The notes below the pieces were generated by a model that saw nothing but the letters and a program-made list of their open reading frames with translations, was not told the origin of the DNA and searched no databases. A stretch of DNA of 64,000 nucleotides, taken from contig JAVLKG010000003.1 of NCBI GenBank assembly GCA_032128875.1, positions 641,008 to 705,007 of the forward strand. Reading direction: 5' to 3'. This DNA is from Candidatus Melainabacteria bacterium 17Bon1m. Its GTDB lineage: Bacteria > Cyanobacteriota > Vampirovibrionia > Obscuribacterales > Obscuribacteraceae. A program made the position numbers and the translations under genes. Positions 27,688 to 48,175 of this stretch are shown one piece after another (position 1 is the first letter of the stretch; every line of letters begins with the position of its first letter).

Positions 27688-28653
27688 TTATTGCACAACT
27701 GGGATGACTTCAGCTGAGTTTTCTCGCTCTGCGAGCAAGCTCAAGAGGTTCTTTTCAATGGTCATAGATATCTCGTCCAACGGCAGATGGCTGAGATTGT
27801 GGACGTTGAACGGGTTCTGCAGTTCTACCCCGAGTTGATCAAGTGAGAAAAGAGGGTAGGCGACGAGCATCGTCACTAAAGGGACGAGAAAAAAATTGTC
27901 CAGAGAGTGCAGAAGCGCGAATGGCAAGGTAAGTACAAACAATGCAATAAATCTGCGAATCTTTATGGAGTACGCCTGAGCTAATGGCGTCTTCAATATT
28001 CGCTCGCAGGCGCCGATATGATCTATCAGCTGCGCACGTTCTCGATCGACTTGCATGTAGGCGAAGCTGTCAATGTCTCCTTTTTCTAGCGCTTCTTTCA
28101 GAAGCAATCCTAGATTCAAGGAGATTGTGCTCGGCGGATGGCGCGTATCCAAAATTTGTGAAGCCGTCTGCGGACCTAGAAGCGCATTTAACTCTTTGGA
28201 AGAATTTTGTCCCCGCAAGACTAGTCTCGCCGAATGCGGAAACGAAGCGGCTAAGCGCACAAATTTCTCGCGCCACGTTTGGTCTTGTGGTCCGTAAGCT
28301 AGCGCAGAAATCGTGATGTTGCGAGACTGGTTGACTATGCCGCCCCAAAGCTTTCTTGCTTCCCACCAGCGGTCATATCCAGCATTTGTTCTTAATACCA
28401 ACAGCAATCCCAGTGCGGTTCCAATGAACTCGTAAGGAGTCAATTCAAGTGAAAGTCGGACGCCTAGGTATTTTTGCGTCAGTGCCGCTACCGCACAGAT
28501 GAGCGAAGCCACCACTCCGACAGTGAGCACGTTCGGCAACACGTGCGGAGTAATTGATCCTTGTATGGCAAAGGCATCAAACCAAAATGATTCCCACTTG
28601 CTGCTAGATGACGCTGTTGAGGGAAAGTCTTGGTTTTGAGATTGCTGTGACAT
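27688..28653 (-). CDS. Bestrophin-family anion channel
   Basis: LRTNAGYDRWWEARKLWG, GACERILKTP, ELQNPF..LPLD; GGAGG SD lies inside upstream CA gene. Confidence 0.93.
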   Translation of the reverse strand: MSQQSQNQDFPSTASSSSKWESFWFDAFAIQGSITPHVLPNVLTVGVVASLICAVAALTQKYLGVRLSLELTPYEFIGTALGLLLVLRTNAGYDRWWEARKLWGGIVNQSRNITISALAYGPQDQTWREKFVRLAASFPHSARLVLRGQNSSKELNALLGPQTASQILDTRHPPSTISLNLGLLLKEALEKGDIDSFAYMQVDRERAQLIDHIGACERILKTPLAQAYSIKIRRFIALFVLTLPFALLHSLDNFFLVPLVTMLVAYPLFSLDQLGVELQNPFNVHNLSHLPLDEISMTIEKNLLSLLAERENSAEVIPVVQ

Positions 28654-29281
28654 CAGAAGCCTCCAATATTTCAGCAAACTGACCAGATTTGCTGTCATAA
28701 CTAAAAACTTGTCCTGTCTCGATTTTGTATGTCCATCCGTGCAGGTTGATCTCGCCTCGAGACAATTTCACAGCCACTGCTGGGTGCGTTTTCAAATTCT
28801 CTAATTGAACCAGAACGTTTTCCTGAATGGCGACATTGAGAAGCTCTTCAGCGTTCAAACCGGCGTCAATGTAATTTTCTTCGACAATGCGTCGAGTGGC
28901 TTCTGCGTGCGACAACCACGAAACTACACTCGGAAGTTTTTTGATTGATTCAAGATTGAGTAGCCCTTTTACCGCTCCGCACAGCGAATGTCCGCATACG
29001 ATAATGTCCTTGACGCCCAGACCCGCAATAGCGAATTCAATAGTAGCGCCTTCCCCACCGTTTGCTGCACCAAAAGGCGGAATTATATTGCCGGCATTTC
29101 TGAGAATAAAAAGGTCACCAGGCTGTGTCTGAGTGATGAGATTGGGATTTATCCTTGAATCGGAACACGTAATGAATAGAGCGTCCGGACTCTGTCCTTG
29201 CGCCAATCTTTCGAAGAGCTCCTGATGACTCTCAAAAACTCTAGATTGAAAGTGATGCAGACCCGTGATGAGTTTTTGCAT
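28604..29281 (-). CDS. Beta-class carbonic anhydrase
   Basis: CSDSR and GHSLCG zinc motifs, RNAGN. Confidence 0.96.
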   Translation of the reverse strand: MQKLITGLHHFQSRVFESHQELFERLAQGQSPDALFITCSDSRINPNLITQTQPGDLFILRNAGNIIPPFGAANGGEGATIEFAIAGLGVKDIIVCGHSLCGAVKGLLNLESIKKLPSVVSWLSHAEATRRIVEENYIDAGLNAEELLNVAIQENVLVQLENLKTHPAVAVKLSRGEINLHGWTYKIETGQVFSYDSKSGQFAEILEASDVTAISKPRLSLNSVI

Positions 29282-29456
29282 GTAAAGCTCCTTTACTACC
29301 TCTAAACGCCTACCCTTTTAGGAAGCCAAATATTGCGAACCCTTTTTACCGCTGACTCAAACTCGTGAGGCTCTGCCTGAAACGGTCCTGCAAATTGAAG
29401 TCCGCCGAGAATCCAAACAACCCGAGATTTCGAAAACGCATTGTTGCGAAGCTCAA

Positions 29457-29476
29457 ATATGCAAAAGTTTGCATGT
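29457..29476. promoter_or_regulatory. Putative ArsR operator upstream of CA-bestrophin
   Basis: ATATGCA-AAAGTT-TGCATGT within a 28-bp near-palindrome (to 29484) that overlaps the -10 of minus-strand TTGCGC-N18-TATATT. Confidence 0.65.
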
Positions 29477-29528
29477 TTGAATATAACATCTTTGCTGGCT
29501 GTTGCGCAAGTCTCCCCGCCCTGTAAGC

Positions 29529-31592: not shown

Positions 31593-31670
31593 TACATCAC
31601 CGATTCAGCAGTAAGTTCTACTGAATAGATGTGATTTTTAGGCCACAGTTCCGTTTATCCGTTTATCGGG

Positions 31671-32837
31671 TTAAAGGATTGTTTTTAAATGCTTGACCAG
31701 CAAATGGTTCTCGGCTGGGCGGCCGGTTGTTACACGGAAGCAAGTCGGCAGTCCGAAAGCAGCCAGCGGGCGGATTGCGATGCCGCGCTTCAGCAGTTCT
31801 TCGTGAATGCGATTGACCTTTTCCTGGCAATTCATCTCAACGAGGATGAAATTGCCATGCGAGGGCACCCGCTGCAGTCCAAGCTTGTCAAAAGCATCTT
31901 GCAAGAAAGCCATCGCATGACGATTGTTTGCGAGTGTTTCTTCCAGGAAGTCTTCATCTTGTAGAGCTGCCAAACCAGCGGCTTGTGCCAGTGAATTGGG
32001 CTCGAAAGGAAGTCTGATGCGGTTTACGAAGTCGATCAAATATTCGTGACCGAGTCCGTAGCCAAGTCTCAAACCTGCCATAGCGTAGGCTTTTGCGAAT
32101 GTTCTCAGAGTGAGTACATTGTCCATGCGATAGCTCATCGAATCCGGATAATCCGGGTTGTCGCAAGCAAACTCGTAATAGGCTTCATCCATGATGACGA
32201 GCACATGCTCTGGAATCTTCTTGATGAAAGTGTCGAATTCCTGACGCGTAAAGATTGTGCCTGTGGGGTTATTGGGGTTGCACAGGTAAATGATCTTGGT
32301 GCGGTCGTTGACAGCATCAGCAATCGCGTCCAGGTCGAAGTGATAGTTTTTGAGTGGAACGGTGCGGAGCTTGACTCCCTGGGCTTTTACAAGCACCAGA
32401 AGTCCGATGAAAGTACCCTCGGATGTCAGCACTTCGTCATCGCCGTGCAGGAAAGCACGCACAATGTTAGCCATGATACTTTCGGAGCCGCTGCCAACCG
32501 CGAGGTTTTCGATGTTGACGCCCAGCTTGTGTCCAAGCGCTTCTCTGAGCTTGAAACTGCCTGATTCGGGATAACGGCAGATGTCGGGTAATGCAGCGGT
32601 TATGGCTTTCAATGCCGATTCCGGCGGTCCAAGTGGATTTTCATTGGAAGCCAGGTTGATAAACTTCTCAATCCCGAGCTCTTTCTTCAGCTGCTCGGGC
32701 GGTCTGCCGGGCTTGTACGAAATCAACTGTTCGATGTGTGTTGGCACGAGTTTTCTCGGTGCCAGCCTTCCACCTTGTTGCACCACTAGTCTCAGTGGGT
32801 CGGTCTTCGCTGCCAGTTGTTGAATGTATGTTGCCAT
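31671..32837 (-). CDS. hisC: Histidinol-phosphate aminotransferase
   Basis: YKPG, LASNENP, CNPNNPTG, DEAY, RTFAKAYAMAGLRLGY. Confidence 0.92.
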   Translation of the reverse strand: MATYIQQLAAKTDPLRLVVQQGGRLAPRKLVPTHIEQLISYKPGRPPEQLKKELGIEKFINLASNENPLGPPESALKAITAALPDICRYPESGSFKLREALGHKLGVNIENLAVGSGSESIMANIVRAFLHGDDEVLTSEGTFIGLLVLVKAQGVKLRTVPLKNYHFDLDAIADAVNDRTKIIYLCNPNNPTGTIFTRQEFDTFIKKIPEHVLVIMDEAYYEFACDNPDYPDSMSYRMDNVLTLRTFAKAYAMAGLRLGYGLGHEYLIDFVNRIRLPFEPNSLAQAAGLAALQDEDFLEETLANNRHAMAFLQDAFDKLGLQRVPSHGNFILVEMNCQEKVNRIHEELLKRGIAIRPLAAFGLPTCFRVTTGRPAENHLLVKHLKTIL

Positions 32838-33503: not shown

Positions 33504-33505
33504 AT

Positions 33506-33558
33506 GTAGGGGAGTCGCATGCGACTCCCTGGCAGGGCGGCGCATGCGCCGCCCCTAC
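33506..33558. repeat. GTAG-type REP doublet
   Basis: GTAGGGGAGTCGCATGCGACTCCC-TGGCA-GGGCGGCGCATGCGCCGCCCCTAC. Confidence 0.85.
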
Positions 33559-33653
33559 TTATTATGCAAACCCTACAAATTAGAGATATATGACCCTGTA
33601 AAGGGCGCCAGAGTGTTCTTTATATAGCTGTGTGATAAGATCTTGCATATTAC

Positions 33654-33727
33654 GCGGGTGTAGTTCAATGGTAGAACGGCAGCCTTCCAAGCTGCACACG
33701 CGGGTTCGATTCCCGCTACCCGCTCCA
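33654..33727 (+). tRNA. tRNA-Gly(TCC)
   Basis: Cloverleaf GCGGGTG..GCAGC-CTTCCAA-GCTGC..GGGTTCGATTCCC..TACCCGC-T-CCA. Confidence 0.97.
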
Positions 33728-33817
33728 TTTTTTTCTGCATACCGCAACATCGGCTAAGAGTCTTCGCCGGTTTTTTCTAGTACAGATATATTCGTGCTGA
33801 CATTTGAGGAGCGCGCC

Positions 33818-34810: not shown

Positions 34811-34817
34811 TTCGAAT

Positions 34818-35387: not shown

Positions 35388-35574
35388 CCTTCTTAACTGA
35401 TGGTTTTACTCTAAGACGGTGCCATGACATTGCGTTGACAGAATGAAGGCGACCACCCTCATTGCGAAGCTAAGATCTTTCGTCACAACCTCTCCGGAAG
35501 CGCTTGGGCCGAGGGAACGATTCGTGTATCGAGTTAAGGTTGTCGTGGCATTCTTGAAGCTTTCAAGTGTTCAA

Positions 35575-35594
35575 ATATTCAAAGTATTGCACAT
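35575..35594 (+). promoter_or_regulatory. Putative ArsR operator upstream of ABC-HlyD-TolC
   Basis: ATATTCA-AAGTAT-TGCACAT, 47 nt before ATG. Confidence 0.7.
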
Positions 35595-35641
35595 TTGCAC
35601 AGATTGTGTTAGATTCGAAATGTCTTCTGGAGTGGTATTCG

Positions 35642-37441
35642 ATGTTTTCCAACGAGAGCGTCCGTGCTCCCTATGAGCACGTCAGTCCTATGACACGCCT
35701 CTGGGGTTTGCTTGTTGCGGACAAGCACGATCTCGTTGTGCTGCTCGTCTATACCTTAATGACGGGCATTGTCTCGCTAGCCGTTCCGCTTGCTGCCCAA
35801 GCGCTCGTAAATACAATTGCCGCCGGCATATTTCTTCAACCGCTCATCGTCCTTTCGTTGCTTGTTTTGGCAGGCCTTCTTTTCGGAAGTATTTTGCGAC
35901 TCTTGAAATTTTGCCTTGTGGAAGAATTACAGCAAAGAATATTCGCGCGCATCACGTTGCGGCTGGGCGAGCGCATTCCGGTCATAAAAGCTTCAGCTCT
36001 CAACACCGAGTACATGCCTGAGCTGATCAATCGTTTCTTTGATGTGATGAATGTTCAGAAATCCTGGGGAAAACTTCTCCTTGAAGGTCCGTCAGCCTTA
36101 CTGCAAGTGTTGATTGGCCTTGTTCTCATGGCGTTTTACAGCCCGTTTCTCCTCGCATTTGATGTCCTGATTATTCTTTTCGTTTTCTTCGCTGTAAGCG
36201 TATTGGGAATCGGAGGACTTAAATCGAGCATAAAGGAATCTGCGTTCAAGTATCGGGTGGCCGAATGGCTAGAGGACATGGGGCGTTGCCAGACCAGTCT
36301 CAAGACCAACGGGATAAGTCATTTTCTCTTCAGGCGCTCTGATGCGCTGGTGCTCAACTATCTGAGAGCACGTCGTGAACATTTCAGTGTTTTGTTTCGG
36401 CAAGCGTTGGGGACTTATTTTTTTCAGGCAGTCGCGAGCGCGGGAATTCTTGCAATTGGTGGTTGGCTGGTGATCAACAAGCAGCTTACATTGGGGCAAT
36501 TGGTGGCTGCGGAACTAGTTGTTTTAAACGTGCTATCGGCTCTGGAGAAATTGATCCGCAACTGCGATACATTCTATGATTTGCTCACCGGTCTCGACAA
36601 GGTCGGTCACCTGACGGACTTGCCTAGCGAACGCGAAGGCGGAGTCACTCTGCCCGAGAGCTCGGGCGGGCTGAGTGTAGAGTGCATGAAATTGCATTTC
36701 TCTTACGGAACAAGAGAAATACTCAGCGATCTGGAGTTGGAATTGCAAGCGGGTGAGCGAGCCAGTCTCGTTGGTGCCAGCGGGGCCGGCAAGACAACTC
36801 TTGCATCCATCATCTGTGGATTGCAGGAAGCGTTGCACGGAACCGTGGAGGTGGGCGGTTTCGACGTGCGAGATCTAGACCTGAAAGACCTGCGCAAACG
36901 GGTCGGTTTGGTTGGGGACATCAATGAAATTTTCGAAGGCACCATTGAAGAGAATGTTGGGCTGGGCAGACCGACGGTTTCCCATCAGGATATTCGCTGG
37001 GCTCTTGATGCTGCACAATTTTCTGATGATCTCGTGCATCTTCCGGATGGTATCAATACGATGCTGGTTAGTGGCGGGCGAAATTTGTCGCGTGGACAGG
37101 TTCAAAGGCTCTTGATCGCAAGAGCCGTAGCCGAACGTCCTCGGCTCTTGATACTGGATGAAGCATTCACCGGAATTGATGAAAAAACAAAATTGAAGAT
37201 CATTGATTCATTGCTCGCTCGCGAAAATGACTGGACGGTGCTCGATATTTCTCACGATGCTGAAGTCGTTATGCGCTCGGATAAAGTCTATGTGCTCGGT
37301 GGCGGCAAAATTAGTGAATGTGGGACGCCGGCAGATCTCGCCTGGCGTAACGAGAGCGAATTTTCAACTCTCTTTCCTGACCTGGCAACGCAAATTCGCA
37401 TGGTCGAGAGAAGAAAAAAAGAGCGTGTGGGGAAACTGTAA
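35642..37441 (+). CDS. Type I secretion-like ABC exporter (TMD+NBD, no C39 peptidase)
   Basis: GASGAGKTT, LSRGQ, LILDEA; GGAG SD before ATG 35642. Confidence 0.92.
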   Translation: MFSNESVRAPYEHVSPMTRLWGLLVADKHDLVVLLVYTLMTGIVSLAVPLAAQALVNTIAAGIFLQPLIVLSLLVLAGLLFGSILRLLKFCLVEELQQRIFARITLRLGERIPVIKASALNTEYMPELINRFFDVMNVQKSWGKLLLEGPSALLQVLIGLVLMAFYSPFLLAFDVLIILFVFFAVSVLGIGGLKSSIKESAFKYRVAEWLEDMGRCQTSLKTNGISHFLFRRSDALVLNYLRARREHFSVLFRQALGTYFFQAVASAGILAIGGWLVINKQLTLGQLVAAELVVLNVLSALEKLIRNCDTFYDLLTGLDKVGHLTDLPSEREGGVTLPESSGGLSVECMKLHFSYGTREILSDLELELQAGERASLVGASGAGKTTLASIICGLQEALHGTVEVGGFDVRDLDLKDLRKRVGLVGDINEIFEGTIEENVGLGRPTVSHQDIRWALDAAQFSDDLVHLPDGINTMLVSGGRNLSRGQVQRLLIARAVAERPRLLILDEAFTGIDEKTKLKIIDSLLARENDWTVLDISHDAEVVMRSDKVYVLGGGKISECGTPADLAWRNESEFSTLFPDLATQIRMVERRKKERVGKL

Positions 37442-38851
37442 ATGGATTCAACTCAAATTCGCCAGATAGAAGATCTTTCGTACAAGGCTGATTACGAATC
37501 CCTCAAAGCAGTGACATCGCGCAGAGGCTACGCAGTCATTGCCGTCATGCTTTCCATAACCCTTGTTTCGTTTGTTCTAATGCTCGTCTATGTTCCCTGG
37601 CAACAAAGCGTTGCGGGCACTGGAAAGATCATTATTCTGTCTCCAATGCACAGACCTCACAACATAGAGGCTCCTATACCTGCGCGCTTGAAGCATTGGT
37701 ATGTAAGGGATGGGCAATTCGTAAAACAGGGTGAATTAATTGCTGAACTTTCTGATCTCGATCCGAAATTTCTTGATCCGGAGCAAGGTAAACGTATCAC
37801 TTTTCAAAAGCACGCTCTTCTTGCACGTAGAGGTGCCGCTTCAAACAGGTTCCATGCGTTGGAAAAACAATTGGATAGTCTTAAGCGATCACAGAATGCC
37901 GCTGTGCCCTCGGCTCGAGAACGCTCTCATCAAGCCAAGGATCGCATCTGGGCAGCAGAGCAGGGTGTTGAGGCCGCCAAACAAAATCAGTTAACAGCCA
38001 GGCTCAATCTTGACCGCATGCGAGAGCTGCATGAGAAAGGTTTGCGATCAAAACGCGACTTGGAGTTAGCAGAACTTGAACATACTCGCGGTATCACTGA
38101 CTTAGAGCGGGCACATGCAGCTCTTGATGTGGCGCGGCGCGATCAGACAGTGGCAGTACTGGAACAGGAAAAAATTGTCGCGGATACTGATGCGACAATG
38201 AGCAGCATTGCTGCTGCAATGGCCGCGGCGCAAGAGACAATAGAGTCGACTTCAAGTGAGATTTACAAGCTCGATATTGAGTTACAAAATGTCAGTGCAA
38301 GGCACGAACAGCGCAAAGTTTTCGCGCCGTCTTCCGGGAAAATAGTACGGCTACTAACAGTAGGAGCCGGTGAGACTGTTGATGCAGGAATGGTGCTAGC
38401 AGTCATCGCTCCAGAAACACAAGATCTTGCTGCCGAACTGACTATTAGTGACAACGACGCGCCGCTCGTTGCTGTCGGCAGACCGGTGCGATTGCAATTC
38501 GCCGGCTGGCCTGCGTTGCAATTCTCCGGCTGGCCCTCAATTGCGGTTGGCACATTCGGTGGACGCATAGCTGTTATCGATGCTGTTGATGACGGACGGA
38601 ACAGTTATCGCGTTATTGTCAAACCCGATGCAGATGCGATCGCCAACGGAAAAGACGAGCCTTGGCCCGATGCCAGATTTCTCAGGCCTGGTGCTGAGGT
38701 AAGCGGCTGGATCATGCTGGACACCGTCAGTCTTGGCTTTGAGTTGTGGAGGCAATTCAACGCGTTTCCTCCAACTGTCAAACCGGAGGAACTTGGATTG
38801 CACAAAACATCTCAAGGCGATAAGGCAGAAATCAAACGCAAATCGAAGTGA
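37442..38851 (+). CDS. HlyD-family membrane fusion protein
   Basis: TM anchor, lipoyl-like halves, coiled coil, 'VRLQFAGWPALQFSGWP', 'ELWRQFNAFPP'. Confidence 0.93.
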   Translation: MDSTQIRQIEDLSYKADYESLKAVTSRRGYAVIAVMLSITLVSFVLMLVYVPWQQSVAGTGKIIILSPMHRPHNIEAPIPARLKHWYVRDGQFVKQGELIAELSDLDPKFLDPEQGKRITFQKHALLARRGAASNRFHALEKQLDSLKRSQNAAVPSARERSHQAKDRIWAAEQGVEAAKQNQLTARLNLDRMRELHEKGLRSKRDLELAELEHTRGITDLERAHAALDVARRDQTVAVLEQEKIVADTDATMSSIAAAMAAAQETIESTSSEIYKLDIELQNVSARHEQRKVFAPSSGKIVRLLTVGAGETVDAGMVLAVIAPETQDLAAELTISDNDAPLVAVGRPVRLQFAGWPALQFSGWPSIAVGTFGGRIAVIDAVDDGRNSYRVIVKPDADAIANGKDEPWPDARFLRPGAEVSGWIMLDTVSLGFELWRQFNAFPPTVKPEELGLHKTSQGDKAEIKRKSK

Positions 38852-38864
38852 GGATTACGAAGTA

Positions 38865-40346
38865 ATGCGTTTGAGTCAGAAATTATTGAACTCGATAATA
38901 TTTCCAATCTCATTTTGTGCGGTGCTAGCCAACGCTGCATTGGCGCAAGACAGTCAGCTCCAAAATGTTCCTGTGCCGAGCAATTTAAGAGGCATAGGGC
39001 TTCAAGCGCCGGAAGGTAAAAGTTTCACGCTCGAACATTTCCTGAAGCTGGTCGAGAAAAATTATCCCAAGCTGTTGGCTGCCGATGCCGAGCGGAGAAT
39101 CTTCAGCGCCAAGCGTCTGGAAAAGGCGGGTGCGTTTGATCCTGTTTTAAGCAGTATCAATGAGTATTTGAGAGTTCAAGACACATTCATACCTGGCAAA
39201 GCAAAAGACGCTATTCACAATGAATCAAGAATAGATCTTCTGACGCGGTCAGGAATAAAAATATTTACCGGTATGCGCCTGAACCCAAATGACACGAAAA
39301 CACCTTTTGTGCCGACCGGTAAAAGCGGCGAGTATTTTGCCGGTGTTTCTGTGCCGTTGCTCAGAGGATTGGGCATCAACGAGAAAATCGCTGCTGAGTC
39401 GCAAGCCAAATTAGGTGAGCCCCTGGCATTGCAATTATTCGGCGCTACGCGACTGGAAGTTCTTCTCAAAGCGGCTGCAGTTTATTGGGATTGGGCAGGA
39501 GCAAAAGCTCGCGTTGATATTGCGCGAGATCTCCTTTCGATTGCTGAAGCCAGGGTCGGTCAGATCAAAGAACGTGTAAACAGCGGTGATCTTCCTGCTC
39601 TCGATATTGCCGAATCTGAGCAAGAAATTCACAGACGGCAGGCTGCTCTCGTCAAGCAAGAGCGTGAATTTCAAAAAGCATCACTGCTACTTTCTGTTTA
39701 TCTATGGGATGAAAATGGCGTTCCTCGTAATGTACCTGGTGTTGAGGACGTACCTGCTCTAAAGCCCGAGCCTCGTAAATTAGCGGACTCCGAATGGTTG
39801 GACGGACGCAAAATGGCGTTGGCACTTCGCCCAGAATTAAAGAAAATTGCTTTGGAGCGAGATCAAGTAAAAGTCGATTTGCGTCTTGCGGAAAACATGA
39901 TCCTTCCGTCGATGGATGCATACGTCTTGCAAGGCGCAGACACGGGTCCTCAGGGGATCGGTCCGATTGTCAGGGCGGGGGTGGCTGTTTCGGCTCCATT
40001 GAGGCAGCGAACCGCAAGAGGCCAGGCACAAGCTGCCAGACTGAAACTTCAAAAGCTAAATCTGGATGAGAAAGCCGAGAAATTGCGTATTCAAGCCGAG
40101 GTGGATGACACAGTTTCAGCCATAAATACTTCATATGAGCGGTGGGCTGCCACTATGGTTGAAGTGCAGAAAGCAAAGCAGGTGGAAAAGGGTGAGCGTT
40201 TGCGCTTTGGTGCGGGTGACAGCACTTTGTTTCTCGTCAATCAAAGAGAAAGAGCTTCTGCCGAAGCGCAGCTGCGACTGGCTGAGGTACATGTTGAATA
40301 TTTACAGTCCATGGCTGCTTTTCGTGCTGTCACTTGCAAACTATGA
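38865..40346 (+). CDS. TolC-family outer-membrane channel
   Basis: Signal peptide, 'GAFDP', 'RF.AGDSTLFLVNQRE'. Confidence 0.92.
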   Translation: MRLSQKLLNSIIFPISFCAVLANAALAQDSQLQNVPVPSNLRGIGLQAPEGKSFTLEHFLKLVEKNYPKLLAADAERRIFSAKRLEKAGAFDPVLSSINEYLRVQDTFIPGKAKDAIHNESRIDLLTRSGIKIFTGMRLNPNDTKTPFVPTGKSGEYFAGVSVPLLRGLGINEKIAAESQAKLGEPLALQLFGATRLEVLLKAAAVYWDWAGAKARVDIARDLLSIAEARVGQIKERVNSGDLPALDIAESEQEIHRRQAALVKQEREFQKASLLLSVYLWDENGVPRNVPGVEDVPALKPEPRKLADSEWLDGRKMALALRPELKKIALERDQVKVDLRLAENMILPSMDAYVLQGADTGPQGIGPIVRAGVAVSAPLRQRTARGQAQAARLKLQKLNLDEKAEKLRIQAEVDDTVSAINTSYERWAATMVEVQKAKQVEKGERLRFGAGDSTLFLVNQRERASAEAQLRLAEVHVEYLQSMAAFRAVTCKL

Positions 40347-40379
40347 AAGAACTTTCTTGACTAATTGTTGTATATATAG

Positions 40380-40399
40380 ATATGCTAATGTTTGCAAAA
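40380..40399 (+). promoter_or_regulatory. Putative ArsR operator and promoter of arsR1
   Basis: ATATGCT-AATGTT-TGCAAAA overlapping -10 of TTGACT(40357)-N18-TATGCT. Confidence 0.6.
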
Positions 40400-40418: not shown

Positions 40419-40805
40419 ATGCCCTACAGAGCAGTTGTGAGCGCGGAGTTGGCAAAGCTCTTCAATGTGCTTTCGCACCCGGTTCGCATTCGAATAATTG
40501 AAGAGTTGAAGAAAGAAGATCTCGCTGTGGGCACACTGAAAGATATTCTTGGTATTACGCACTCTGCTGTTTCTCAACAACTTGCTGTGTTGAGAAGCCA
40601 TCACCTGGTCGTCGAGATGCGTCAGGGGCGGAATGTTTTCTATCATCTGAGAAAGCCGGAACTTGCTCAGTGGATTATGCAAGGAGTTGGTTTTATCTCA
40701 CCAGACACAACGGAAGTAGAAGATTTGATGTCTGCTATTCAGAACGTCAAGACTGTTTGGGGTGATGAAACTCCTCAGCCTAAGCGAAAAAAACGCGGCG
40801 CCTGA
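40419..40805 (+). CDS. ArsR/SmtB-family repressor (no cysteine)
   Basis: LSHPVRIRII..SAVSQQLAVLR..RQGRNVFY. Confidence 0.93.
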   Translation: MPYRAVVSAELAKLFNVLSHPVRIRIIEELKKEDLAVGTLKDILGITHSAVSQQLAVLRSHHLVVEMRQGRNVFYHLRKPELAQWIMQGVGFISPDTTEVEDLMSAIQNVKTVWGDETPQPKRKKRGA

Positions 40806-41195
40806 TTATTTCTCTCTAGCCTCTTTTGAGCGAACCTTTTCTTTTTCATCCGACCAATGATTAATAGCCCTCTGGGCCGCTGACTTGAGTAAATTGGATT
40901 CTGAATCGTCAGGGACGATAAGTGGAATTCCTTCAATCAGCCATGTTGCAATTTCAGGTGATGCCAGCCGGTACAAAATGTTGCGGCCGTCTCGTCTTTC
41001 TTTTATTAGTCGCTGCGACTTAAGCAGCGCGAGATGTTGCGAGACTGCGGATTGTCTAATGCCGAGAATGTCCTGAAGCGAATTAACACATAGCTCGCCT
41101 GCCCTCAGCTCGACAATGATGCTGATTCGCACAGGATGGGACAGAGTTGAATACATCGCTGCAAGCTGTTGCGCAATCAAAGCTCTATGAGGCAT
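40806..41195 (-). CDS. ArsR/SmtB-family repressor paralog (single Cys, ELCV)
   Basis: LSHPVRISII..ELCV..SAVSQHLALLK..RDGRNILY. Confidence 0.93.
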   Translation of the reverse strand: MPHRALIAQQLAAMYSTLSHPVRISIIVELRAGELCVNSLQDILGIRQSAVSQHLALLKSQRLIKERRDGRNILYRLASPEIATWLIEGIPLIVPDDSESNLLKSAAQRAINHWSDEKEKVRSKEAREK

Positions 41196-41224: not shown

Positions 41225-41244
41225 ATGTGCAAGTATATGAATAT
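41225..41244 (-). promoter_or_regulatory. Putative ArsR operator upstream of arsR2
   Basis: Minus strand ATATTCA-TATACT-TGCACAT. Confidence 0.7.
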
Positions 41245-41344: not shown

Positions 41345-41372
41345 TTGACAAAAGTCTTCGATCCGCTATACT
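41345..41372 (+). promoter_or_regulatory. Sigma70-type promoter of pseudo-murF/dab operon
   Basis: TTGACA-N16-TATACT. Confidence 0.7.
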
Positions 41373-41393
41373 TGCAATTGTTGAGAGTTTTAG

Positions 41394-41413
41394 ATATTCA
41401 AACATTTGCAAAT
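41394..41413 (+). promoter_or_regulatory. Putative ArsR operator upstream of pseudo-murF/dab operon
   Basis: ATATTCA-AACATT-TGCAAAT. Confidence 0.75.
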
Positions 41414-41427
41414 GACTGAGGTGAACC

Positions 41428-42399: not shown

Positions 42400-42430
42400 A
42401 ACGAGGGTCTGATTTTAAGTTATTGAGGAA

Positions 42431-43927
42431 ATGATGAACACGCAGTTTCTTGTTGCAAATGAGCTGGCGGCACTTCTCGCCGCGCCCCTAGCTCTTCTTC
42501 TAAGTTGTTTGGCGACCATTACGTGGAAAACGCGAATACTCATATTTGGTCAGATTGCTGCTTTCAGCTTTGCATTTTTTGGTCTTTCATGGGGTTTGAT
42601 TAATCCATCTCTTGTGCCATCTGCGGCAATGCTCAAGCATTTGCCGTTCAATTTGGATGTTGCCTCGTGTTGCTTGCTTACTGCTATCACATTCATTGCA
42701 GCGGTTGTGCTCTCGTTTAGTGATCGATACTTGCTTGGTGACGCTCATCGGCTGAGTTTTTTGCGACTGCTTGCATTTATGTCGTCGTGCGCAGCGCTGT
42801 TGAGTGTAAGTGACAGTATATGCTTAGCATTTGTTTGTTGGAATGCACTTTCTTTGGGACTCTGGGCAATTATGCGATTGCACTCTGAGTCTAAAGAGTT
42901 CTCAAATGTTGTTCTCGGCTACCACTTGCTTAGCGACCTCGGGTTGCTCGTTGCACTAGTACTGATTGTCGGAGGCACTGAAAGCACACAATTTAGCAAT
43001 TTAACCAGCGCGTCCTTTTCTTTGACGCAGACAATCAATCAGTCGACAAGCTTGGTGGCTTGCTTGCTTCTGGTCCTCTCTTTCGGCATAAAGTCAGCGC
43101 TTTTCCCCTTTCACCGATGGTTGCTGGCTACATTGAATGCCCCCACTCCGCTGTCTGGTTTTTTGCATGCCGGCGTGGTGAATGTTTCAGCGATCATGGC
43201 CTGGCGATTAATGCCGATACTTCATGAACAAACAGAAATTCTCCTCTTCTGGGGGTTATGGTCGGCTGTTTCGGCGATTGTGGGAACTCTCGGCATGTCT
43301 GCCCAGCCGGATGTAAAACGCAAACTGGTTTACTCAACTGCAGGTCAGATGGGTTTTATGTCTCTGCAATGTGCTGTGGGCGCTCCTGGAGCGGCCCTTT
43401 TCCATTTGATTGCTCATGGACTCTTCAAATGTCAGATGTTCCTTCAATCAGGAAGTGCGGTGGCAGAAGGATTGAACAGTAGGAAATTCGCCTATGGGCT
43501 GCAGGATGGTAGTGAAGGAAAAGGTCTGAAAAATCTGCTGATTGTCGTAACCGTGGCTCTGGCCTTTGTCTGTTTCTATACGACATGCATCGACTTCGAT
43601 TGGACGTCGCTGTCAGCTGCAATAACAGCTGCGGCCATTCTGTGTGCGATTCCTGCTCTGGACCGAGTTGATATGAGGTCTCTTTGTTTATTTTTGCTGA
43701 CCACATTACTGTTCGGAGTTGCGACCGGGTTTGGGCGTCGCTTCTTCGAAGGGCTTTTACCCGCAGAATACGCGATAAATGAATGGCTTCTACCTGGTTT
43801 TTTGCTCCTCGCTCTGGCGCTTGCATTTGCCCTGCACATCGCTCGAAGAAGCAGCATTTCCAGGGCCTTATACGTGCACAGCCTGAATGGATTTTATTTG
43901 GGCGAAGTGGAATTGAGCCGTAAGTAA
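42431..43927 (+). CDS. dabB: DAB inorganic carbon transporter membrane subunit (NuoL/ND5-like)
   Basis: KSALFPFHRWL..APTPLSGFLHAG, YSTAGQMGF, HLIAHGLFK; adjacent to dabA, no other nuo genes. Confidence 0.9.
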   Translation: MMNTQFLVANELAALLAAPLALLLSCLATITWKTRILIFGQIAAFSFAFFGLSWGLINPSLVPSAAMLKHLPFNLDVASCCLLTAITFIAAVVLSFSDRYLLGDAHRLSFLRLLAFMSSCAALLSVSDSICLAFVCWNALSLGLWAIMRLHSESKEFSNVVLGYHLLSDLGLLVALVLIVGGTESTQFSNLTSASFSLTQTINQSTSLVACLLLVLSFGIKSALFPFHRWLLATLNAPTPLSGFLHAGVVNVSAIMAWRLMPILHEQTEILLFWGLWSAVSAIVGTLGMSAQPDVKRKLVYSTAGQMGFMSLQCAVGAPGAALFHLIAHGLFKCQMFLQSGSAVAEGLNSRKFAYGLQDGSEGKGLKNLLIVVTVALAFVCFYTTCIDFDWTSLSAAITAAAILCAIPALDRVDMRSLCLFLLTTLLFGVATGFGRRFFEGLLPAEYAINEWLLPGFLLLALALAFALHIARRSSISRALYVHSLNGFYLGEVELSRK

Positions 43928-43952
43928 ATATTGGAAAACTACAGGAGGCATA

Positions 43953-46403
43953 ATGAAAAGCACTCAGATAAGCCGGTCTCAATCACTCAGCGACGCGATT
44001 GGCGATGCGTCGAATTGCATCGCTCCGTTATATCCACTTACCAATTTCATCGCTGGCAATGCTCTGAAGGGTCTTGAAGAAATTCCTTTTGCGTCGGCGA
44101 TGCGGCAGGCTGCTCATCTTTTCGGTGCTCATGGTTTTCTTCTGCTGTCAGAGTATCGCGCGATGTATGAATACGGGCGTATTTCTCCAGCCAATCTCGA
44201 GGAAGCTTTTCTGAGAAAGCACGAAAGTGAAACTGCTCAGCAAGATTCAGAAAAAGAAATTCTCACGTTAGCGGAAATGCTTGACCGCACGAGCGGTTCG
44301 AAAGTTGTAGCCGCTATTAACAGTCAAATGGTGAAGTGGTGTGCGGCTTATTCAGATCGGACACAGGCTCCGTGGAAAGCTTGCAGAAAAGATGATCTGT
44401 ATATCTTTTGGCGAGATTTAGCTAAGTACGATCTTTCGCTTTCTTTTCACGGTGTCAAAGATTGGACTCAAACAATTGCTTCAATGCCTGAGAAGGCGGA
44501 AGACGCTTTAGAAGCGCTTCTAAATGCGCTTGACGTGAGAGGAGAAAACATCTCGCCGTATTTGAGAAGGCATTTAGTTGAGATGCCTGGCTTTGCTAGT
44601 TATTTCAAGTGGCGCGAACAAGAAGGGCATGATCAAGGAGTCTTGTGCGCTTATTTGGCAATTAGGCTGTGCTACGAGAAAGTTTTGTCGCAACCTGTTG
44701 CACGTCGTTTATACAAATCTGATGATCTGGGACTGGTCAGACCCTTGCTTGAATTAGAAACGCTTGCCAAAAAGGCACCGCCTGCTAGCGAAGACTATGG
44801 ACCGGTCTGGCAAGAAGCCTATGAGCTGAATTATCGCGACAGACTTTTGTCTTTGTTGGATAACAAAACGCGAAGCAGCACGGACTCGAAGTGCCAGATG
44901 ATCTTCTGCATCGACGTTCGTTCTGAGCCTATCAGGCGAGAGTTGGAAAGATGTGGACCATATACGACTTATGGCTTTGCCGGATTTTTCGGTATGCCTA
45001 TGAGGATGAGTGAATTGGGAAGCGCCCTTTCAATTGATCTGTGCCCTGTTCTATTGAAGCCTGAGCGTGAAGTTAGAGAAAGCGCGGTCGGTTTATCTGC
45101 GACAAAACGCATAAGCTGGCAAGCTCTGCGAGTGTCCGCTCTGCAATTGAAAAAGAAGCTCAAATGTAATCTTTCCGGTGCCTTCGGACTTGTTGAGATG
45201 TTGGGAATTTTCTCCGCCGTGCCTCTTGCTCTGAAAACATTCTTCCCCTCTCTTGCGAAGAGGATGTGGAATCGTATCGAGTCTAGTGTCGCTGCTGATG
45301 TCCGTACAAGTCTTGATTTGACGAATTTTTCGCTTGAGGAAAAAGTTGCCCTGGCGCAGAGGGCTGTCAAAGGAATCGGTCTGGAGAACTTCGGCGAACT
45401 GATAGTTCTTTGCGGTCACAGAAGTACTTCAACTAACAACCCATTTGCTTCCTCGCTTGACTGCGGTGCGTGTGGTGCCAATGCCGGTGGATTCAGTGCA
45501 CGTTTGGCGGCCGACGTTTTAAACGATTCTGAGGTCCGGGGTGAGCTGATGGTTAGAGGTTTGATAATTCCCGACCGGACGCATTTCATTGCCGCAGAGC
45601 ATGATACGACAACCGATCTGTTTATGTTTTTCGATTGCGACGATTTGTCGCAACAGCATACAGAGATTCTCGATAAGCTCAGATTTGATCTGGTTTGCGC
45701 TGGGGATGAGGTTCGGCGAAGACGAGCGGAGCGCCTGCCTCAGAGTAGTTTGCCCAAATTCGACGATCCACTCGAGCGTTCTTGTGATTGGGGGCAGATA
45801 GCACCAGAATGGGGACTCGCCGGCAATGCCGCTTTTGTCGCCGCTCCCCGGTCCGTGACAAAGCATGCTGACCTAGAAGGAAGGGTATTCCTACATTCAT
45901 ATGAATACAGCACAGATAGTGATGGACAGATCCTCGAGTTGATTATGACAGCACCGCTGGTAGTGGCGCAGTGGATCAATATGCAATATTACCTGTCTAC
46001 CGTTGATAATAAAGTTTTTGGCAGTGGAAGTAAGGTCTTTCATAATGTAGTCGGTGACTTTGGCGTCATGCAAGGCGCACATAGCGATCTGAGGATGGGC
46101 TTGCCGCTCCAATCTGTGGTGACTGAGTCCGGTGTTTTTCATGAGCCGATGCGCTTGCTTGCTGTAATTCGAGCTCCTCTGAGCGCTATAGATTCTGTTC
46201 TAGATAAGCACCATGATGTGCGTAAGCTGGTAGCCAATCGTTGGATTCGATTAGTAGCACTAGAGCCGCAGAGCGGTGAGTTTTTCGAAGCCGAGGATAG
46301 CGGATCGTGGAGACGAATAAACTTTCAATCTCAAGCTGCAAGCGCGGGTTTAGCCGGTCTCTCTGAGGAAGCTTGTGTCGCACGCCAGTCAATACTTCGG
46401 TAA
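43953..46403 (+). CDS. dabA: DAB inorganic carbon transporter soluble subunit (DUF2309, beta-CA-like)
   Basis: FCIDVRSE, GFAGFFG, CGH..NNP..LDCGACG, DWGQIAPEWGLAGNA, WINMQYY. Confidence 0.95.
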   Translation: MKSTQISRSQSLSDAIGDASNCIAPLYPLTNFIAGNALKGLEEIPFASAMRQAAHLFGAHGFLLLSEYRAMYEYGRISPANLEEAFLRKHESETAQQDSEKEILTLAEMLDRTSGSKVVAAINSQMVKWCAAYSDRTQAPWKACRKDDLYIFWRDLAKYDLSLSFHGVKDWTQTIASMPEKAEDALEALLNALDVRGENISPYLRRHLVEMPGFASYFKWREQEGHDQGVLCAYLAIRLCYEKVLSQPVARRLYKSDDLGLVRPLLELETLAKKAPPASEDYGPVWQEAYELNYRDRLLSLLDNKTRSSTDSKCQMIFCIDVRSEPIRRELERCGPYTTYGFAGFFGMPMRMSELGSALSIDLCPVLLKPEREVRESAVGLSATKRISWQALRVSALQLKKKLKCNLSGAFGLVEMLGIFSAVPLALKTFFPSLAKRMWNRIESSVAADVRTSLDLTNFSLEEKVALAQRAVKGIGLENFGELIVLCGHRSTSTNNPFASSLDCGACGANAGGFSARLAADVLNDSEVRGELMVRGLIIPDRTHFIAAEHDTTTDLFMFFDCDDLSQQHTEILDKLRFDLVCAGDEVRRRRAERLPQSSLPKFDDPLERSCDWGQIAPEWGLAGNAAFVAAPRSVTKHADLEGRVFLHSYEYSTDSDGQILELIMTAPLVVAQWINMQYYLSTVDNKVFGSGSKVFHNVVGDFGVMQGAHSDLRMGLPLQSVVTESGVFHEPMRLLAVIRAPLSAIDSVLDKHHDVRKLVANRWIRLVALEPQSGEFFEAEDSGSWRRINFQSQAASAGLAGLSEEACVARQSILR

Positions 46404-47277
46404 GAGAGCCATCCTGGGCACCATGCACAAAAAGGCTGAAGCTTTGACTTTACCCTTTAAGGTTGGTCTGGGAATGGAGCTGCAGACCTGTGAATTCGAC
46501 ACTGACCAGTTGGGGACATTTACAGGTGAGATAGAGAGGCAGGGCAGTGCGGTCGAGACTGCTGGAAAGAAAGCTCGATTGGCAATGTGCAAGACCGAAG
46601 AACCGCGCGGGCTTGGCAGTGAAGGTAGTTTTGGACCGCATCCCCTCATTCCGTATATGGCCTTAAGTCAGGAATTTCTTGTTCTTGTCGATGATGAGTT
46701 GGAAATTCAGGTAGCAGAGAGCGTCGTGACAACCAGGACAAATTACTGTCACACAGAGGTAAATTGCGTCGATGAGACTGAAGAATTTTTGCACCGTGCA
46801 AAATTTCCTTCTCATGCGCTCATCGTAAAGCCTGTCAAAAGCCAATCATCCGTTTTTGACAATGTCAAAAGACTATTCAGCGGGCAGGTCGTGACGTCGC
46901 AGATCTATAAGGGAATTCGAGACAGGGACTCTCTGGCATGTGCAATTCGCACTTGTCGGCAGCATTCCTCTTCTGGGCGCGTTCATATCGAGACTGATAT
47001 GCGAGCGCACATGAATCCAACAAGGATGCGCGTATTAAGGTCATTAGGTATTAAGTTGGTTAGGCGTTTGCTCTCTTCTTGTCAGGCGTGTGGCTGTCCG
47101 GGTTTTGGAATTTCAGGACAAGACGGAAATCTTCCCTGTGAGGAATGCGGCTTTCCATCGGATGCCTATGCTCAAGAGTTGCATTCCTGTCCTCGCTGCC
47201 AATTTACAAAAACACTGCCGCGAAGCGACGGGCTCACTTATGTGGAGGCTCTCTTTTGTCAGCGTTGCAATCCTTGA
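46375..47277 (+). CDS. DUF6671-family protein with C-terminal CxxC zinc ribbons
   Basis: TMHKK, DTDQLGTFTGEIER, SEGSFGPHP, ETDMRAHMNPTRM, four CxxC; overlaps dabA stop. Confidence 0.85.
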   Translation: MSHASQYFGKRAILGTMHKKAEALTLPFKVGLGMELQTCEFDTDQLGTFTGEIERQGSAVETAGKKARLAMCKTEEPRGLGSEGSFGPHPLIPYMALSQEFLVLVDDELEIQVAESVVTTRTNYCHTEVNCVDETEEFLHRAKFPSHALIVKPVKSQSSVFDNVKRLFSGQVVTSQIYKGIRDRDSLACAIRTCRQHSSSGRVHIETDMRAHMNPTRMRVLRSLGIKLVRRLLSSCQACGCPGFGISGQDGNLPCEECGFPSDAYAQELHSCPRCQFTKTLPRSDGLTYVEALFCQRCNP

Positions 47278-47371
47278 TAAAGGAGTAATTAAGTCGCACA
47301 CCTAAGGATATCGCTGGAGCCCTTGTGGCTCGCTAACCGTATCGGTCTTAATGGAGGAGTGAGTTAATTAA

Positions 47372-48175
47372 ATGGATAAGAATCTCAAAGACCTGGAGAA
47401 CGAAAGCATATTTATCATCAGAGAGGCTTATGCAAAGGTGAAGGATCTGGCTTTGCTCTGGTCTATGGGAAAAGATTCTACCGTCCTTCTGCATCTCGTG
47501 AAAAAGGCCTTCATGGGTCACTGCCCTATCCCCTTGGTACATGTGGACGAGAGTTATGAACCAGAGGAAATGACAAACTGGAGAGATGATTACGTGAAGA
47601 GGCATGGATTGCGCCTCATCGTTGGACAAAACAAGCAAGCTCTCGCCGATGGCATGGGTCCTCACAAGGGTCGGCTTGTTTGTTGCAATGCACTAAAAAC
47701 AGTCGCCTTACATCAGACGGTGAAAGAGCGCAAAATTCAGGCGCTTCTCGTCGGCATCAGACGGGATGAAGAAGGATCTCGCGGAAAAGAACGCGTTGTA
47801 TCCCCCAGGTCGGCCGGCGGCGAGTGGATGTATAAGGATCAGCCGGCTGAAATTTGGAACTACTACAACTTGCATGCGCCGAAGGATGTTCATCTGCGTG
47901 TTCATCCTATTCTGCACTGGACGGAGCTGGCGATTTGGGAGTACATACTCAGCGAATCTATTGAAGTTATTCCGCTATATTTCTCTCGAAACGGTATGCG
48001 TTATCGTAGTCTTGGATGTGCGCCTTGCACAGGTGCATTCCCTTCGGAGTCGTCTAGTGTTGAAGAGATCATCGAAGAGCTTAAGCTCTCTAATGACTCC
48101 GAGAGAGCTGGCAGAGCTCATGATCAAGAAGAAATGTATGCCTTGCAGAAGCTGCGAAAAACGGGCTTTATGTAA
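47372..48175 (+). CDS. cysD: Sulfate adenylyltransferase subunit 2-like PP-loop protein
   Basis: LENESIFIIRE, SMGKDS, GIRRDEEGSRGKER, RSLGC, ERAGR. Confidence 0.85.
   Translation: MDKNLKDLENESIFIIREAYAKVKDLALLWSMGKDSTVLLHLVKKAFMGHCPIPLVHVDESYEPEEMTNWRDDYVKRHGLRLIVGQNKQALADGMGPHKGRLVCCNALKTVALHQTVKERKIQALLVGIRRDEEGSRGKERVVSPRSAGGEWMYKDQPAEIWNYYNLHAPKDVHLRVHPILHWTELAIWEYILSESIEVIPLYFSRNGMRYRSLGCAPCTGAFPSESSSVEEIIEELKLSNDSERAGRAHDQEEMYALQKLRKTGFM

Follow-up and report, generated by a model that had tools for sequence, protein, structure and literature searches.

We analysed a stretch of 64,000 nucleotides (nt) from Candidatus Melainabacteria bacterium 17Bon1m (GenBank assembly GCA_032128875.1, contig JAVLKG010000003.1, positions 641,008 to 705,007), hereafter called the window. 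It carries a dab operon for a predicted DAB-type inorganic-carbon pump, a two-gene unit for a beta-type carbonic anhydrase (CA) and a bestrophin-type channel, an ABC-HlyD-TolC exporter, and two regulators of the ArsR/SmtB family, ArsR1 and ArsR2 (Table 1). An AT-rich inverted repeat common to five upstream regions could be recognized by eye, and a matrix trained on other genomes placed its four best matches in the whole source genome at these units. A previous reading of the window, made from the sequence alone, had proposed that the units form one low-CO2 regulon. The gene content that it named was borne out for all 17 genes by the open reading frame (ORF) listing and by profile searches.

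Genes and layout of the locus

The dab operon opens with a truncated Mur-ligase homolog (pseudo-MurF), which is followed by dabB, dabA, a DUF6671 gene and a paralog of CysD. The start of dabA is 25 nt downstream of the end of the DabB gene, and the membrane subunit comes first, as in mpsAB. The sequence-only reading was right in naming twin ArsR genes, but their orientation had to be corrected: they are convergent, not divergent, and it is ArsR2 that is divergent from the dab operon. Two listed starts are likely to be displaced. The true start of the bestrophin gene is probably inside the listed ORF, as homologs align from about residue 13–31, and for the ABC gene the ATG at 35643 is a likelier start than the listed GTG.

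The source genome (7.55 Mb in 35 contigs, 93% complete) has only one dabA, and no RuBisCO large subunit was found in it at this completeness. The nearest DabA loci in public genomes belong to entries titled Melainabacteria, Obscuribacterales or Obscuribacteraceae. The Obscuribacterales lineage is a non-photosynthetic sister group of the oxygenic cyanobacteria. Because no RuBisCO was found and the closest relatives are Melainabacteria/Obscuribacterales, the host is reasonably taken to be a heterotroph, as the sequence-only reading had supposed.

Table 1. Predicted genes, promoters and operator sites of the locus, in window coordinates
Feature	Position	Strand	Context and evidence	Matrix score and genome rank
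Bestrophin-type anion channel gene	27688-28698	-	Second gene of CA unit; Pfam Bestrophin_2, 247.7 bits	
Cytosolic beta-CA gene	28604-29281	-	Pfam Pro_CA 1-156/156, 157.5 bits	
Predicted operator, beta-CA-bestrophin unit	29457-29476		176 nt upstream of beta-CA start	26.7 bits, rank 3
ABC exporter, fused membrane and ATPase domains	35567-37441	+	Pfam ABC_membrane and ABC_tran	
Weak candidate operator, ABC exporter	35575-35594		Overlaps listed GTG start	17.5 bits, rank ~10
HlyD-family periplasmic adaptor	37442-38851	+	Pfam HlyD_3, Biotin_lipoyl_2, HlyD_D23	
TolC-like outer-membrane factor	38733-40346	+	Pfam OEP in two stretches, 98.5 bits	
Predicted ArsR1 promoter, TTGACT-18-TATGCT	40357-40386	+	Promoter scan; -10 hexamer inside operator	
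Predicted operator, ArsR1	40380-40399		Over -10 hexamer of ArsR1 promoter	27.3 bits, rank 2
ArsR1	40419-40805	+	Pfam HTH_5/HTH_20; NF033788 79.4 bits (cut-off 55)	
ArsR2	40806-41195	-	Pfam HTH_5; NF033788 86.9 bits (cut-off 55)	
Predicted operator, ArsR2	41225-41244		30 nt upstream of ArsR2	23.4 bits, rank 4
Predicted dab promoter, TTGACA-16-TATACT	41345-41372	+	Promoter scan; 11/12 consensus match	
Predicted operator, dab operon	41394-41413		Just downstream of dab promoter	28.7 bits, rank 1
Pseudo-MurF, truncated Mur-ligase homolog, 323 aa	41428-42399	+	No Pfam match; partial TIGR01143 match	
DabB, NuoL-like proton-conducting membrane subunit	42431-43927	+	Pfam Proton_antipo_M (PF00361), 134.9 bits	
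DabA, vectorial beta-CA-like subunit	43953-46403	+	Pfam DabA (PF10070) 3-747/747, 808.6 bits	
DUF6671 protein	46375-47277	+	Pfam DUF6671 (PF20376), 169.9 bits (cut-off 23.8)	
CysD paralog, PP-loop ATP pyrophosphatase	47372-48175	+	Pfam PAPS_reduct; NF003587 321.9 bits	

The palindrome in the source genome

We built a 20-position matrix from 34 sites at 14 loci, all of them in other genomes (consensus ATATTCAAATATTTGCATAT, 22.1 bits). The training sites were located by a mismatch scan of orthologous upstream regions of 15 related loci, and the source genome, its 89%-identical relative (L005) and any CA site were left out. Upon scanning both strands of the source genome, we observed the following. 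Ranks one to four were taken by the sites at the dab operon, ArsR1, beta-CA and ArsR2, all in the window. Six simulated genomes of the same size, generated by a second-order Markov model, contained 0, 1, 2, 2, 0 and 0 sites of at least 23 bits (mean 0.83), against 4 in the real genome. Four such sites greatly exceed what chance would give, and their confinement to promoter positions within 12 kb strengthens the point. The site upstream of beta-CA, the core of which is an ATGCAAA-N2-TTTGCAT palindrome, is a true prediction, because the matrix had been trained without any CA site. Genome-wide rarity had been set beforehand as the test of the motif, and these ranks bear it out.

At lower scores the counts were similar in real and simulated genomes: 9 against 5–18 sites at 17.5 bits or more, and 42 against 33–53 at 15 bits or more. 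The site ranked fifth (C1:158782, 21.6 bits) was dropped as an operator and is probably a chance match, since it lies at the ends of two convergent genes. The matrix scan found no site of 14.5 bits or more upstream of the CysD paralog gene. The sequence-only reading had placed the shared palindrome upstream of all five units. This held for beta-CA, ArsR1, ArsR2 and dab, and the exporter site of the source genome rests on the comparative support described below.

Promoters and transcription units

The predicted dab operator is ~20 nt downstream of the near-consensus dab promoter, right before the ribosome-binding site, and this layout recurs in related loci (L003, L004, L005, L007, L015, L026, L038, L039, L042). 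The operator over the ArsR1 promoter is kept in every ArsR1 upstream region that we read among the relatives. Both geometries fit repression. The promoter scan found no consensus promoter in the beta-CA and ABC upstream regions. In the 94-nt gap between DUF6671 and the CysD paralog there is no promoter on the + strand and no terminator; since nothing of the kind separates the two genes, the CysD paralog is probably co-transcribed as the last gene of the dab operon.

Conservation of the predicted operator and of its presumed target genes

We surveyed 81 genomes of the Obscuribacterales, source genome included; the counts for this order are a reading of match tables and, the genomes being kin, overstate independence. 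The sites are conserved at orthologous positions down to ~50% DabA identity. At six loci outside the training set (L089–L094), all six had a site upstream of the ABC gene (19.2–29.2 bits), the equivalent of the weak exporter site of the window, and all six had an ArsR1 site (22.2–29.2 bits). ABC upstream sites were also present in L005, L008, L010, L011, L012 and L045.

The CA unit gave a comparable picture. Bestrophin orthologs (54–95% identity) are present in 19 other genomes of the order, and a beta-CA gene adjoins the ortholog in 11 other loci, 10 of which have an upstream site of at least 16 bits; this position is also occupied in L049, L064 and others. In 8 of these loci the first gene of the operon encodes an ArsR paralog that is 50–54% identical to ArsR1. 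None of the 10 loci with only distant bestrophin paralogs had a site of 13 bits or more. The CA-linked ArsR paralogs go with symmetric operators of the TTCAAA...TTTGAA type, and ArsR1-type sites end in TTTGCA. In the source genome and its closest relative the CA unit is without an ArsR of its own, and the CA site has TGCA-type half-sites. The CA unit may thus have been rewired to ArsR1 or ArsR2 after the loss of its own ArsR.

A blind IUPAC scan of five other genomes returned 11–17 matches in each, against 1–3 for the reversed control. Only the known sites and one new one were interpretable, and most of the other matches are unexplained; one (L098) is inside a hemerythrin ORF. The new site, in genome G036, is a perfect palindrome and precedes a stand-alone beta-CA gene by 128 nt. 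This gene (within L097 4015-6923, contig C2) is convergent with a gene for a Na+/H+ exchanger carrying TrkA domains.

DabA is present in 42 of the 81 genomes. In 32 of these 42, representing 12 of the 13 genera with DabA, a match to the ArsR clade (E <=1e-15) lies within 10 kb of it on the same contig. Pseudo-MurF orthologs (38–89% identity, 305–354 aa) occur in 28 genomes, every one of which has DabA, and are beside dab in 26 of the 28, the second family of the order included. DUF6671 occurs in 25 genomes, again all among the 42: its gene comes right after dabA in 17 of them, 2 have it within 10 kb, and in the other 6 it is on a different contig. The survey of partner co-occurrence, one of the checks proposed with the sequence-only reading, was therefore positive for DUF6671, pseudo-MurF and ArsR, and for DUF6671 also in Gammaproteobacteria (see below).

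DabA comes in two size classes in the order, ~810–850 aa, as in the window, and ~960–1110 aa, and several genomes encode both classes. ArsR and pseudo-MurF genes are found next to the long form as well. In two loci (L042 10001-12500; G034, contig C73) the dab genes are reduced to a C-terminal dabA fragment directly after twin ArsR genes; both retain DUF6671, and L042 also the CysD paralog. Outside the order, 6 of 9 Haloferax loci (L019, L020, L022–L025) have a beta-CA-like gene immediately after dabA, and another lies by dabA, on the opposite strand, in a Bradymonadaceae locus (L018).

The ArsR clade

ArsR1 and ArsR2 belong to the ArsR/SmtB family by curated score (Table 1). ArsR1 has no cysteine and ends in a clade-specific C-terminal extension; ArsR2 has one cysteine and is 47% identical to ArsR1. 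Orthologs of ArsR1 (61–99% identity) adjoin the exporter, dab or both, and a second ArsR gene on the opposite strand is beside ArsR1 in at least 11 other genomes of the order.

Among proteins of solved structure, the cyanobacterial zinc sensor SmtB is nearest to the clade (72.6 bits). D104, H106 and C61 of SmtB, which we take to be metal ligands, correspond in ArsR1 to K79, E81 and A36, respectively. An alignment of 21 clade members showed no conserved Cys/His/Asp/Glu cluster that could serve as metal ligands, and a single histidine is invariant, the structural H20 of an HPxR motif. The clade has in common an invariant N-terminal MPxR and, in the C-terminal extension, invariant P95, S105, A106 and W114. 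Because the SmtB ligands are unconserved, ArsR1 is devoid of cysteine and no ligand cluster is shared, the signal is probably not a metal at a known site. A metal sensor of the SmtB/CzrA alpha5/alpha3N type was rejected on these same positions. A persulfide/sulfite sensor of the BigR/SqrR type was also rejected: the two proteins scored 53.8 and 60.3 bits on NF040642 against a cut-off of 155, and the cysteine pair is absent.

A third ArsR paralog of the source genome (C1:486994-487347; L095 8956-9441, minus) is 41% identical to ArsR1. Its gene is directly after that of a SulP/STAS anion transporter and before one for a universal stress protein; a weak site of 15.9 bits precedes the SulP gene by 66 nt. 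The SulP protein was not accepted as BicA (90 bits against a cut-off of 880). Beyond the order, 24 of 200 further genomes of the phylum encode clade members at ~50% identity. In the three such loci of other families that were inspected (among L113-L123), the ArsR gene is followed by an ORF of 124–162 aa of no known family.

DabA, DabB and the carbonic anhydrase unit

Residues C319, D321, H489 and C504 of DabA align (E 4.8e-109) with C351, D353, H524 and C539 of the solved DabA2 of Halothiobacillus neapolitanus (9rd0), the zinc site of which is described as Cys-His-Cys with an Asp-Arg dyad. The claim of the sequence-only reading that the zinc ligands are intact was correct. The full-length PF10070 match, the zinc site and the adjacent PF00361 partner point to dab genes of the DAB/MpsAB type.

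CxDxR and HxxC are the zinc motifs of beta-CAs. Both are present in the beta-CA of the window, which has no signal-peptide-like N-terminus.

DUF6671, pseudo-MurF and the CysD paralog

DUF6671 is a recurrent partner of dabA outside the order too. In a first set of 46 DabA loci it was also near dabA in Bacillota/Sulfobacillus, Micromonospora and Cellvibrio. Among 301 gammaproteobacterial genomes, 78 had DabA (this tally includes one genome flagged unpublished, G123) and 16 had DUF6671 above the cut-off. It was directly after dabA in 11 of the 16; of the remainder, one was on another contig, one was far from dabA, and three were in genomes without detected DabA (one of the three is a fragment of 45 aa lying at the edge of a contig). 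The ten gammaproteobacterial loci that we inspected read dabB-dabA-DUF6671, none with a CysD-like gene. In a Cellvibrio metagenome-assembled genome (L047 4835-18107) the genes dabB-dabA-CysD-like-DUF6671 follow one another with stops overlapping starts, a LysR gene is divergent from them, and carAB lie downstream. Carbamoyl-phosphate synthase, the carAB product, uses bicarbonate. In two loci (L002 4917-7604; G075, contig C91) two copies of DUF6671, 56% and 36% identical to that of the window, flank the CysD paralog downstream of dabA.

The AlphaFold2 model of DUF6671 had a mean pLDDT of 87.1. In structure comparisons with VIA-align its core resembled Ham1 (Z 12.1; root-mean-square deviation (rmsd) 3.0 over 126 residues) and YjjX (Z 12.0; rmsd 3.5 over 138 residues), and with Z below 12.0 also Maf and the CinA C-terminal domain; Foldseek gave a probability of 1.00 to VC0702/YjjX. 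An insert at residues 124–210 is like the ATP-grasp B domain (Z 8.5). The sequence identity to the ITPase/Maf/YjjX folds is only 9–16%, and four CxxC pairs at the C-terminus are invariant. Together, fold and cysteine pairs suggest a nucleotide-binding zinc-ribbon protein.

Pseudo-MurF scored 77.4 bits on TIGR01143 (cut-off 288.6), covering profile positions 2–218 of 418. Compared with solved MurF it has only the N-terminal and central domains, and its length of 323 aa is to be set against 460–520 aa for the MurF-like ORFs of the same genomes. Its P-loop is GxxGRR, with GRRV in place of GKTT of MurF. It was rejected as a MurF on all three counts, namely family score, P-loop GxxGKT and C-terminal domain. 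Because GRR is invariant in 8 of 8 orthologs, the change appears to be selected and not a sign of decay. The only clusters retrieved by an atlas look-up were generic ones of short Mur ligases. The source genome has another short Mur-ligase-like ORF (C3:121763-122671, 325 aa, 32% identical to pseudo-MurF) far from dab, and ORFs like it are also present in genomes of the same genus.

The CysD paralog passed the subfamily cut-off (NF003587, 321.9 against 195) and stayed below those of two equivalogs (255 against 413 and 245 against 397). It keeps the PP-loop. The sequence-only reading had called it an orphan CysD; there is indeed no adjacent CysN, but it is better described as a paralog, because a second CysD of the genome, with 68% identity to it, is encoded on contig C5 next to a CysN-like gene. 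It is 80–97% identical among relatives whose DabA is only 53–89% identical. A link of CysD-like genes to dab was seen in part of the order, in Cellvibrio and in one Polyangiales locus. A complex prediction for the CysD paralog with DUF6671 scored 0.00, which weighs neither for nor against binding.

The exporter and the intervening genes

The ABC protein is HlyB/PrtD-like, without a peptidase domain, and its best NCBIfam matches are bacteriocin or type I secretion ABC proteins, far below the cut-offs. A curated type I secretion system was rejected, as TIGR01846 (210.7 against 725.6), TIGR01842 (195.4 against 510.2), TIGR01843 (76.9 against 208.7) and TIGR01844 (28.7 against 225.2) all fell short and only general Pfam domains were matched. 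Near the exporter we found no conserved secretion substrate, only Ser/Thr kinases, a SOUL-domain protein and small unknown ORFs. In one gammaproteobacterium (L101; G138 C13:882000-897000) a LysR gene and homologs of ABC-HlyD-OEP (28–33% identity) are divergent from dabB-dabA-DUF6671, a single, independent hint of a functional tie between exporter and DAB. The dabA of this locus reads as two ORFs.

The exporter is ~6.3 kb from the CA unit. The genes in between, for an LVIVD-repeat protein, an aminotransferase, a thioesterase, a tRNA-Gly, a pyridoxal phosphate (PLP) enzyme and an unknown protein of 189 aa, had no operator site in the matrix scan and are not part of the unit. The tRNA-Gly (tcc) is at 33654-33727, and contigs of four sequencing runs break or branch at 33505-33730, as would be expected of a repeated sequence.

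A proposed local regulon for inorganic carbon and its alternatives

The aforementioned data make it highly probable, in our judgement, that a real ArsR-type regulon joins the CA-bestrophin unit, the ArsR genes, the dab operon and the exporter. As its best explanation we propose, with moderate confidence, a local regulon of a lineage-specific ArsR/SmtB clade that serves bicarbonate supply in heterotrophic Obscuribacterales. Carbon supply would be the most economical theme, because dab, beta-CA and bestrophin, and perhaps SulP too, deal with CO2 or with anions. On shortage of inorganic carbon as the signal our opinion is evenly divided. Of the integrated low-CO2 response that the sequence-only reading had put forward, co-regulation through one operator type is backed by the comparative evidence, with low CO2 as its presumed signal.

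The mechanism that we envisage is as follows. Dimers of ArsR1 and dimers of ArsR2 would bind the imperfect 20-bp palindrome. The operator over the -10 hexamer would make ArsR1 autorepressing, and the one following closely on the dab promoter would be a roadblock to transcription of pseudo-MurF-dabB-dabA-DUF6671 and possibly the CysD paralog. The same palindrome upstream of ArsR2, of beta-CA-bestrophin and, weakly here, of ABC-HlyD-TolC would put these units under the same control. Under the inducing condition the repressors would leave the DNA and all units would be expressed together, most likely for the supply or handling of bicarbonate when CO2/HCO3- is short. DabBA would use the proton motive force to drive vectorial hydration of CO2, the cytosolic beta-CA and the bestrophin-type channel would equilibrate and move HCO3-, and DUF6671 would be a dedicated accessory protein of one DAB subtype. 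The identities of the genes, the positions of the sites, their uniqueness in the genome, their conservation and the co-occurrence of the genes come from the data themselves. Repression itself, the pairing of paralogs with sites, the inducing signal and the roles of the exporter, pseudo-MurF, DUF6671 and the CysD paralog are what we infer from this arrangement.

These proposals can be carried further. The ArsR clade could be a CO2/bicarbonate-responsive repressor, sensing through the N-terminal Pro-x-Arg or the C-terminal extension; DUF6671, with its ITPase-like fold and two zinc ribbons, could act as a third component of a DAB subtype that is widespread and spans two or more phyla; and the GRR-loop Mur-ligase homolog, the CysD paralog and the exporter could be working parts, making the whole a complete heterotrophic system of inorganic-carbon acquisition in the cyanobacteria's non-photosynthetic sister lineage. 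That all of this should hold jointly is doubtful, and we give it little weight.

Several observations weigh against a regulon devoted to bicarbonate supply. We know of no ArsR/SmtB protein that senses CO2 or bicarbonate. The exporter site is, taken alone, at chance level in the source genome. The order counts suffer from kinship, as stated above; moreover, in 10 of the 42 genomes with DabA the contig that carries it has no ArsR less than 10 kb away (in several, the locus is interrupted by a contig end), and in the first set the exporter adjoins ArsR1 in only 8 of the 13 DabA loci that have ArsR1. Among ArsR-clade loci of other families of the phylum, 0 of 11 had a matrix site or a homolog of a window gene within 1.5 kb, and 0 of 38 DabA loci of other phyla had an ArsR-family ORF within ~10 kb. 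Three RNA-labelled libraries contain contigs of 50–138 kb that are identical to window positions 28001-48000, genes and spacers alike, at flat depth. Contigs of this length mean that DNA is present, and the libraries are therefore uninformative on transcription. Finally, ABC-HlyD-TolC-ArsR1 is intact, with both sites, in 6 of 6 genomes without detected DabA. ArsR1 with the exporter is the stable core, and the exporter rather than carbon uptake may thus be the primary target.

This last point leads to an exporter-centred regulon, in which ArsR1 senses the exported substrate or the stress that export relieves and the carbon genes came under the same operator for reasons unrelated to CO2 shortage. 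ArsR/SmtB repressors typically control the efflux of their own inducer, which agrees with such a scheme. However, in relatives an ArsR paralog and the same operator type head beta-CA-bestrophin operons without a nearby exporter, and the same type of operator is upstream of the lone beta-CA of G036. The strongest sites of the source genome are at dab, ArsR1 and CA and not at the exporter, and the gammaproteobacterial exporter homolog beside dabB-dabA-DUF6671 under LysR hints at a tie of the exporter to DAB itself. We regard this explanation as rather unlikely.

Alternatively, DabBA, CA and the anion channel might serve pH or ion homeostasis, by acidifying the cytoplasm or balancing charge, for example at alkaline pH. 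DabB is of the Mrp/NuoL antiporter-like family, anions tend to leave a cell through a channel when its membrane potential is negative inside, and the operator-bearing beta-CA gene of G036 is beside a gene for a Na+/H+ exchanger; possible pH roles of prokaryotic CAs are noted in 10.1101/476713. On the other hand, that exchanger gene is convergent to the CA gene and not co-oriented with it, and the DAB/MpsAB systems that have been tested act in inorganic-carbon uptake, according to 10.64898/2026.05.01.722082 and 10.1101/476713. This alternative seems improbable to us.

We consider it quite improbable that the repressor mounts an SmtB-like response to zinc or another metal, controlling zinc proteins (DabA, beta-CA, the Cys-rich DUF6671) together with an efflux system. 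SmtB being the closest solved relative, the two zinc enzymes and the invariant CxxC pairs of DUF6671 would suit such a response, but the changed ligand positions, the missing cysteine of ArsR1 and the failure to find a ligand cluster in the 21 members speak against it. That the palindrome arose by chance or from base composition, among neighbouring units with no relation to one another, was already disfavoured and is hardly credible, for although weak sites are no commoner than in simulated genomes and the site ranked fifth is at the ends of convergent genes, the top four sites are clustered at promoters and conserved among relatives, the matrix predicted CA genes absent from its training, and no repeated mobile sequence was seen around the sites.

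Comparison with known systems

A regulon for bicarbonate supply under ArsR-type control, as favoured here, would be of interest in several respects. DAB pumps are under structural and engineering study, and their regulation and accessories outside autotrophs are the gap that is addressed here. The locus offers a defined predicted operator, candidate repressors and promoters for direct testing, and it draws attention to DUF6671, an uncharacterised protein that recurs with dabBA in several phyla. It bears on the handling of inorganic carbon in non-photosynthetic relatives of the cyanobacteria, and on carbon-uptake equipment that may predate the cyanobacterial CO2-concentrating mechanism.

The sequence-only reading had held the combination to be undescribed, and no published description was found. 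The literature searched contained no description of ArsR control of DAB or of this operator, although supplementary gene-context data (Figure 5 S3 of 10.1101/476713) could bear on it. It likewise contained none of DUF6671 or a Mur-ligase homolog as DAB partners, nor any use of the name DUF6671, and nothing joining ArsR with CO2-responsive control of carbonic anhydrase. A dab pump, a CA with its channel and an exporter under one ArsR repressor family, through a shared palindrome, thus seem to be an undescribed arrangement.

With DAB2 of H. neapolitanus (DabA2-DabB2) and MpsAB of Staphylococcus aureus the locus shares the two-gene core of PF10070 and PF00361 and the four zinc-site residues. In contrast to both, the predicted operon opens with a truncated Mur-ligase homolog and ends with DUF6671 and the CysD paralog. 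ArsR-type regulators precede dab here, whereas for H. neapolitanus LysR-type regulators are named in 10.1101/476713, which also notes DAB homologs in heterotrophs; LysR genes are likewise beside dab in L047 and L101. Unlike the DAB systems with DabC described in 10.64898/2026.05.01.722082, the operon has no DabC-like membrane gene.

The fold of the DUF6671 core is like that of ITPase/Ham1/Maf/YjjX proteins, from which it differs in its low sequence identity, the inserted subdomain and the four CxxC pairs. The predicted regulators are like SmtB and CzrA, which have 12-2-12 operators, in belonging to a winged-helix family, in having an imperfect AT-rich inverted repeat over or after the promoter, and in the predicted autoregulation and control of efflux. 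They differ in the unconserved alpha5/alpha3N ligand positions, the lack of cysteine in ArsR1, the MPxR and C-terminal extension of the clade, and the carbon-handling targets.

In cyanobacteria, inducible uptake of inorganic carbon is under repressor and activator control by CcmR/NdhR and CmpR of the LysR family. The regulators described here are of another protein family and would act at another operator, in a host without detected RuBisCO or photosynthesis. In Chlamydomonas, the bestrophin-like bicarbonate channels BST1-3 are paired with the carbonic anhydrase CAH3. The same pairing of channel and CA recurs in the window, here as a predicted bacterial two-gene operon with a cytosolic beta-CA.

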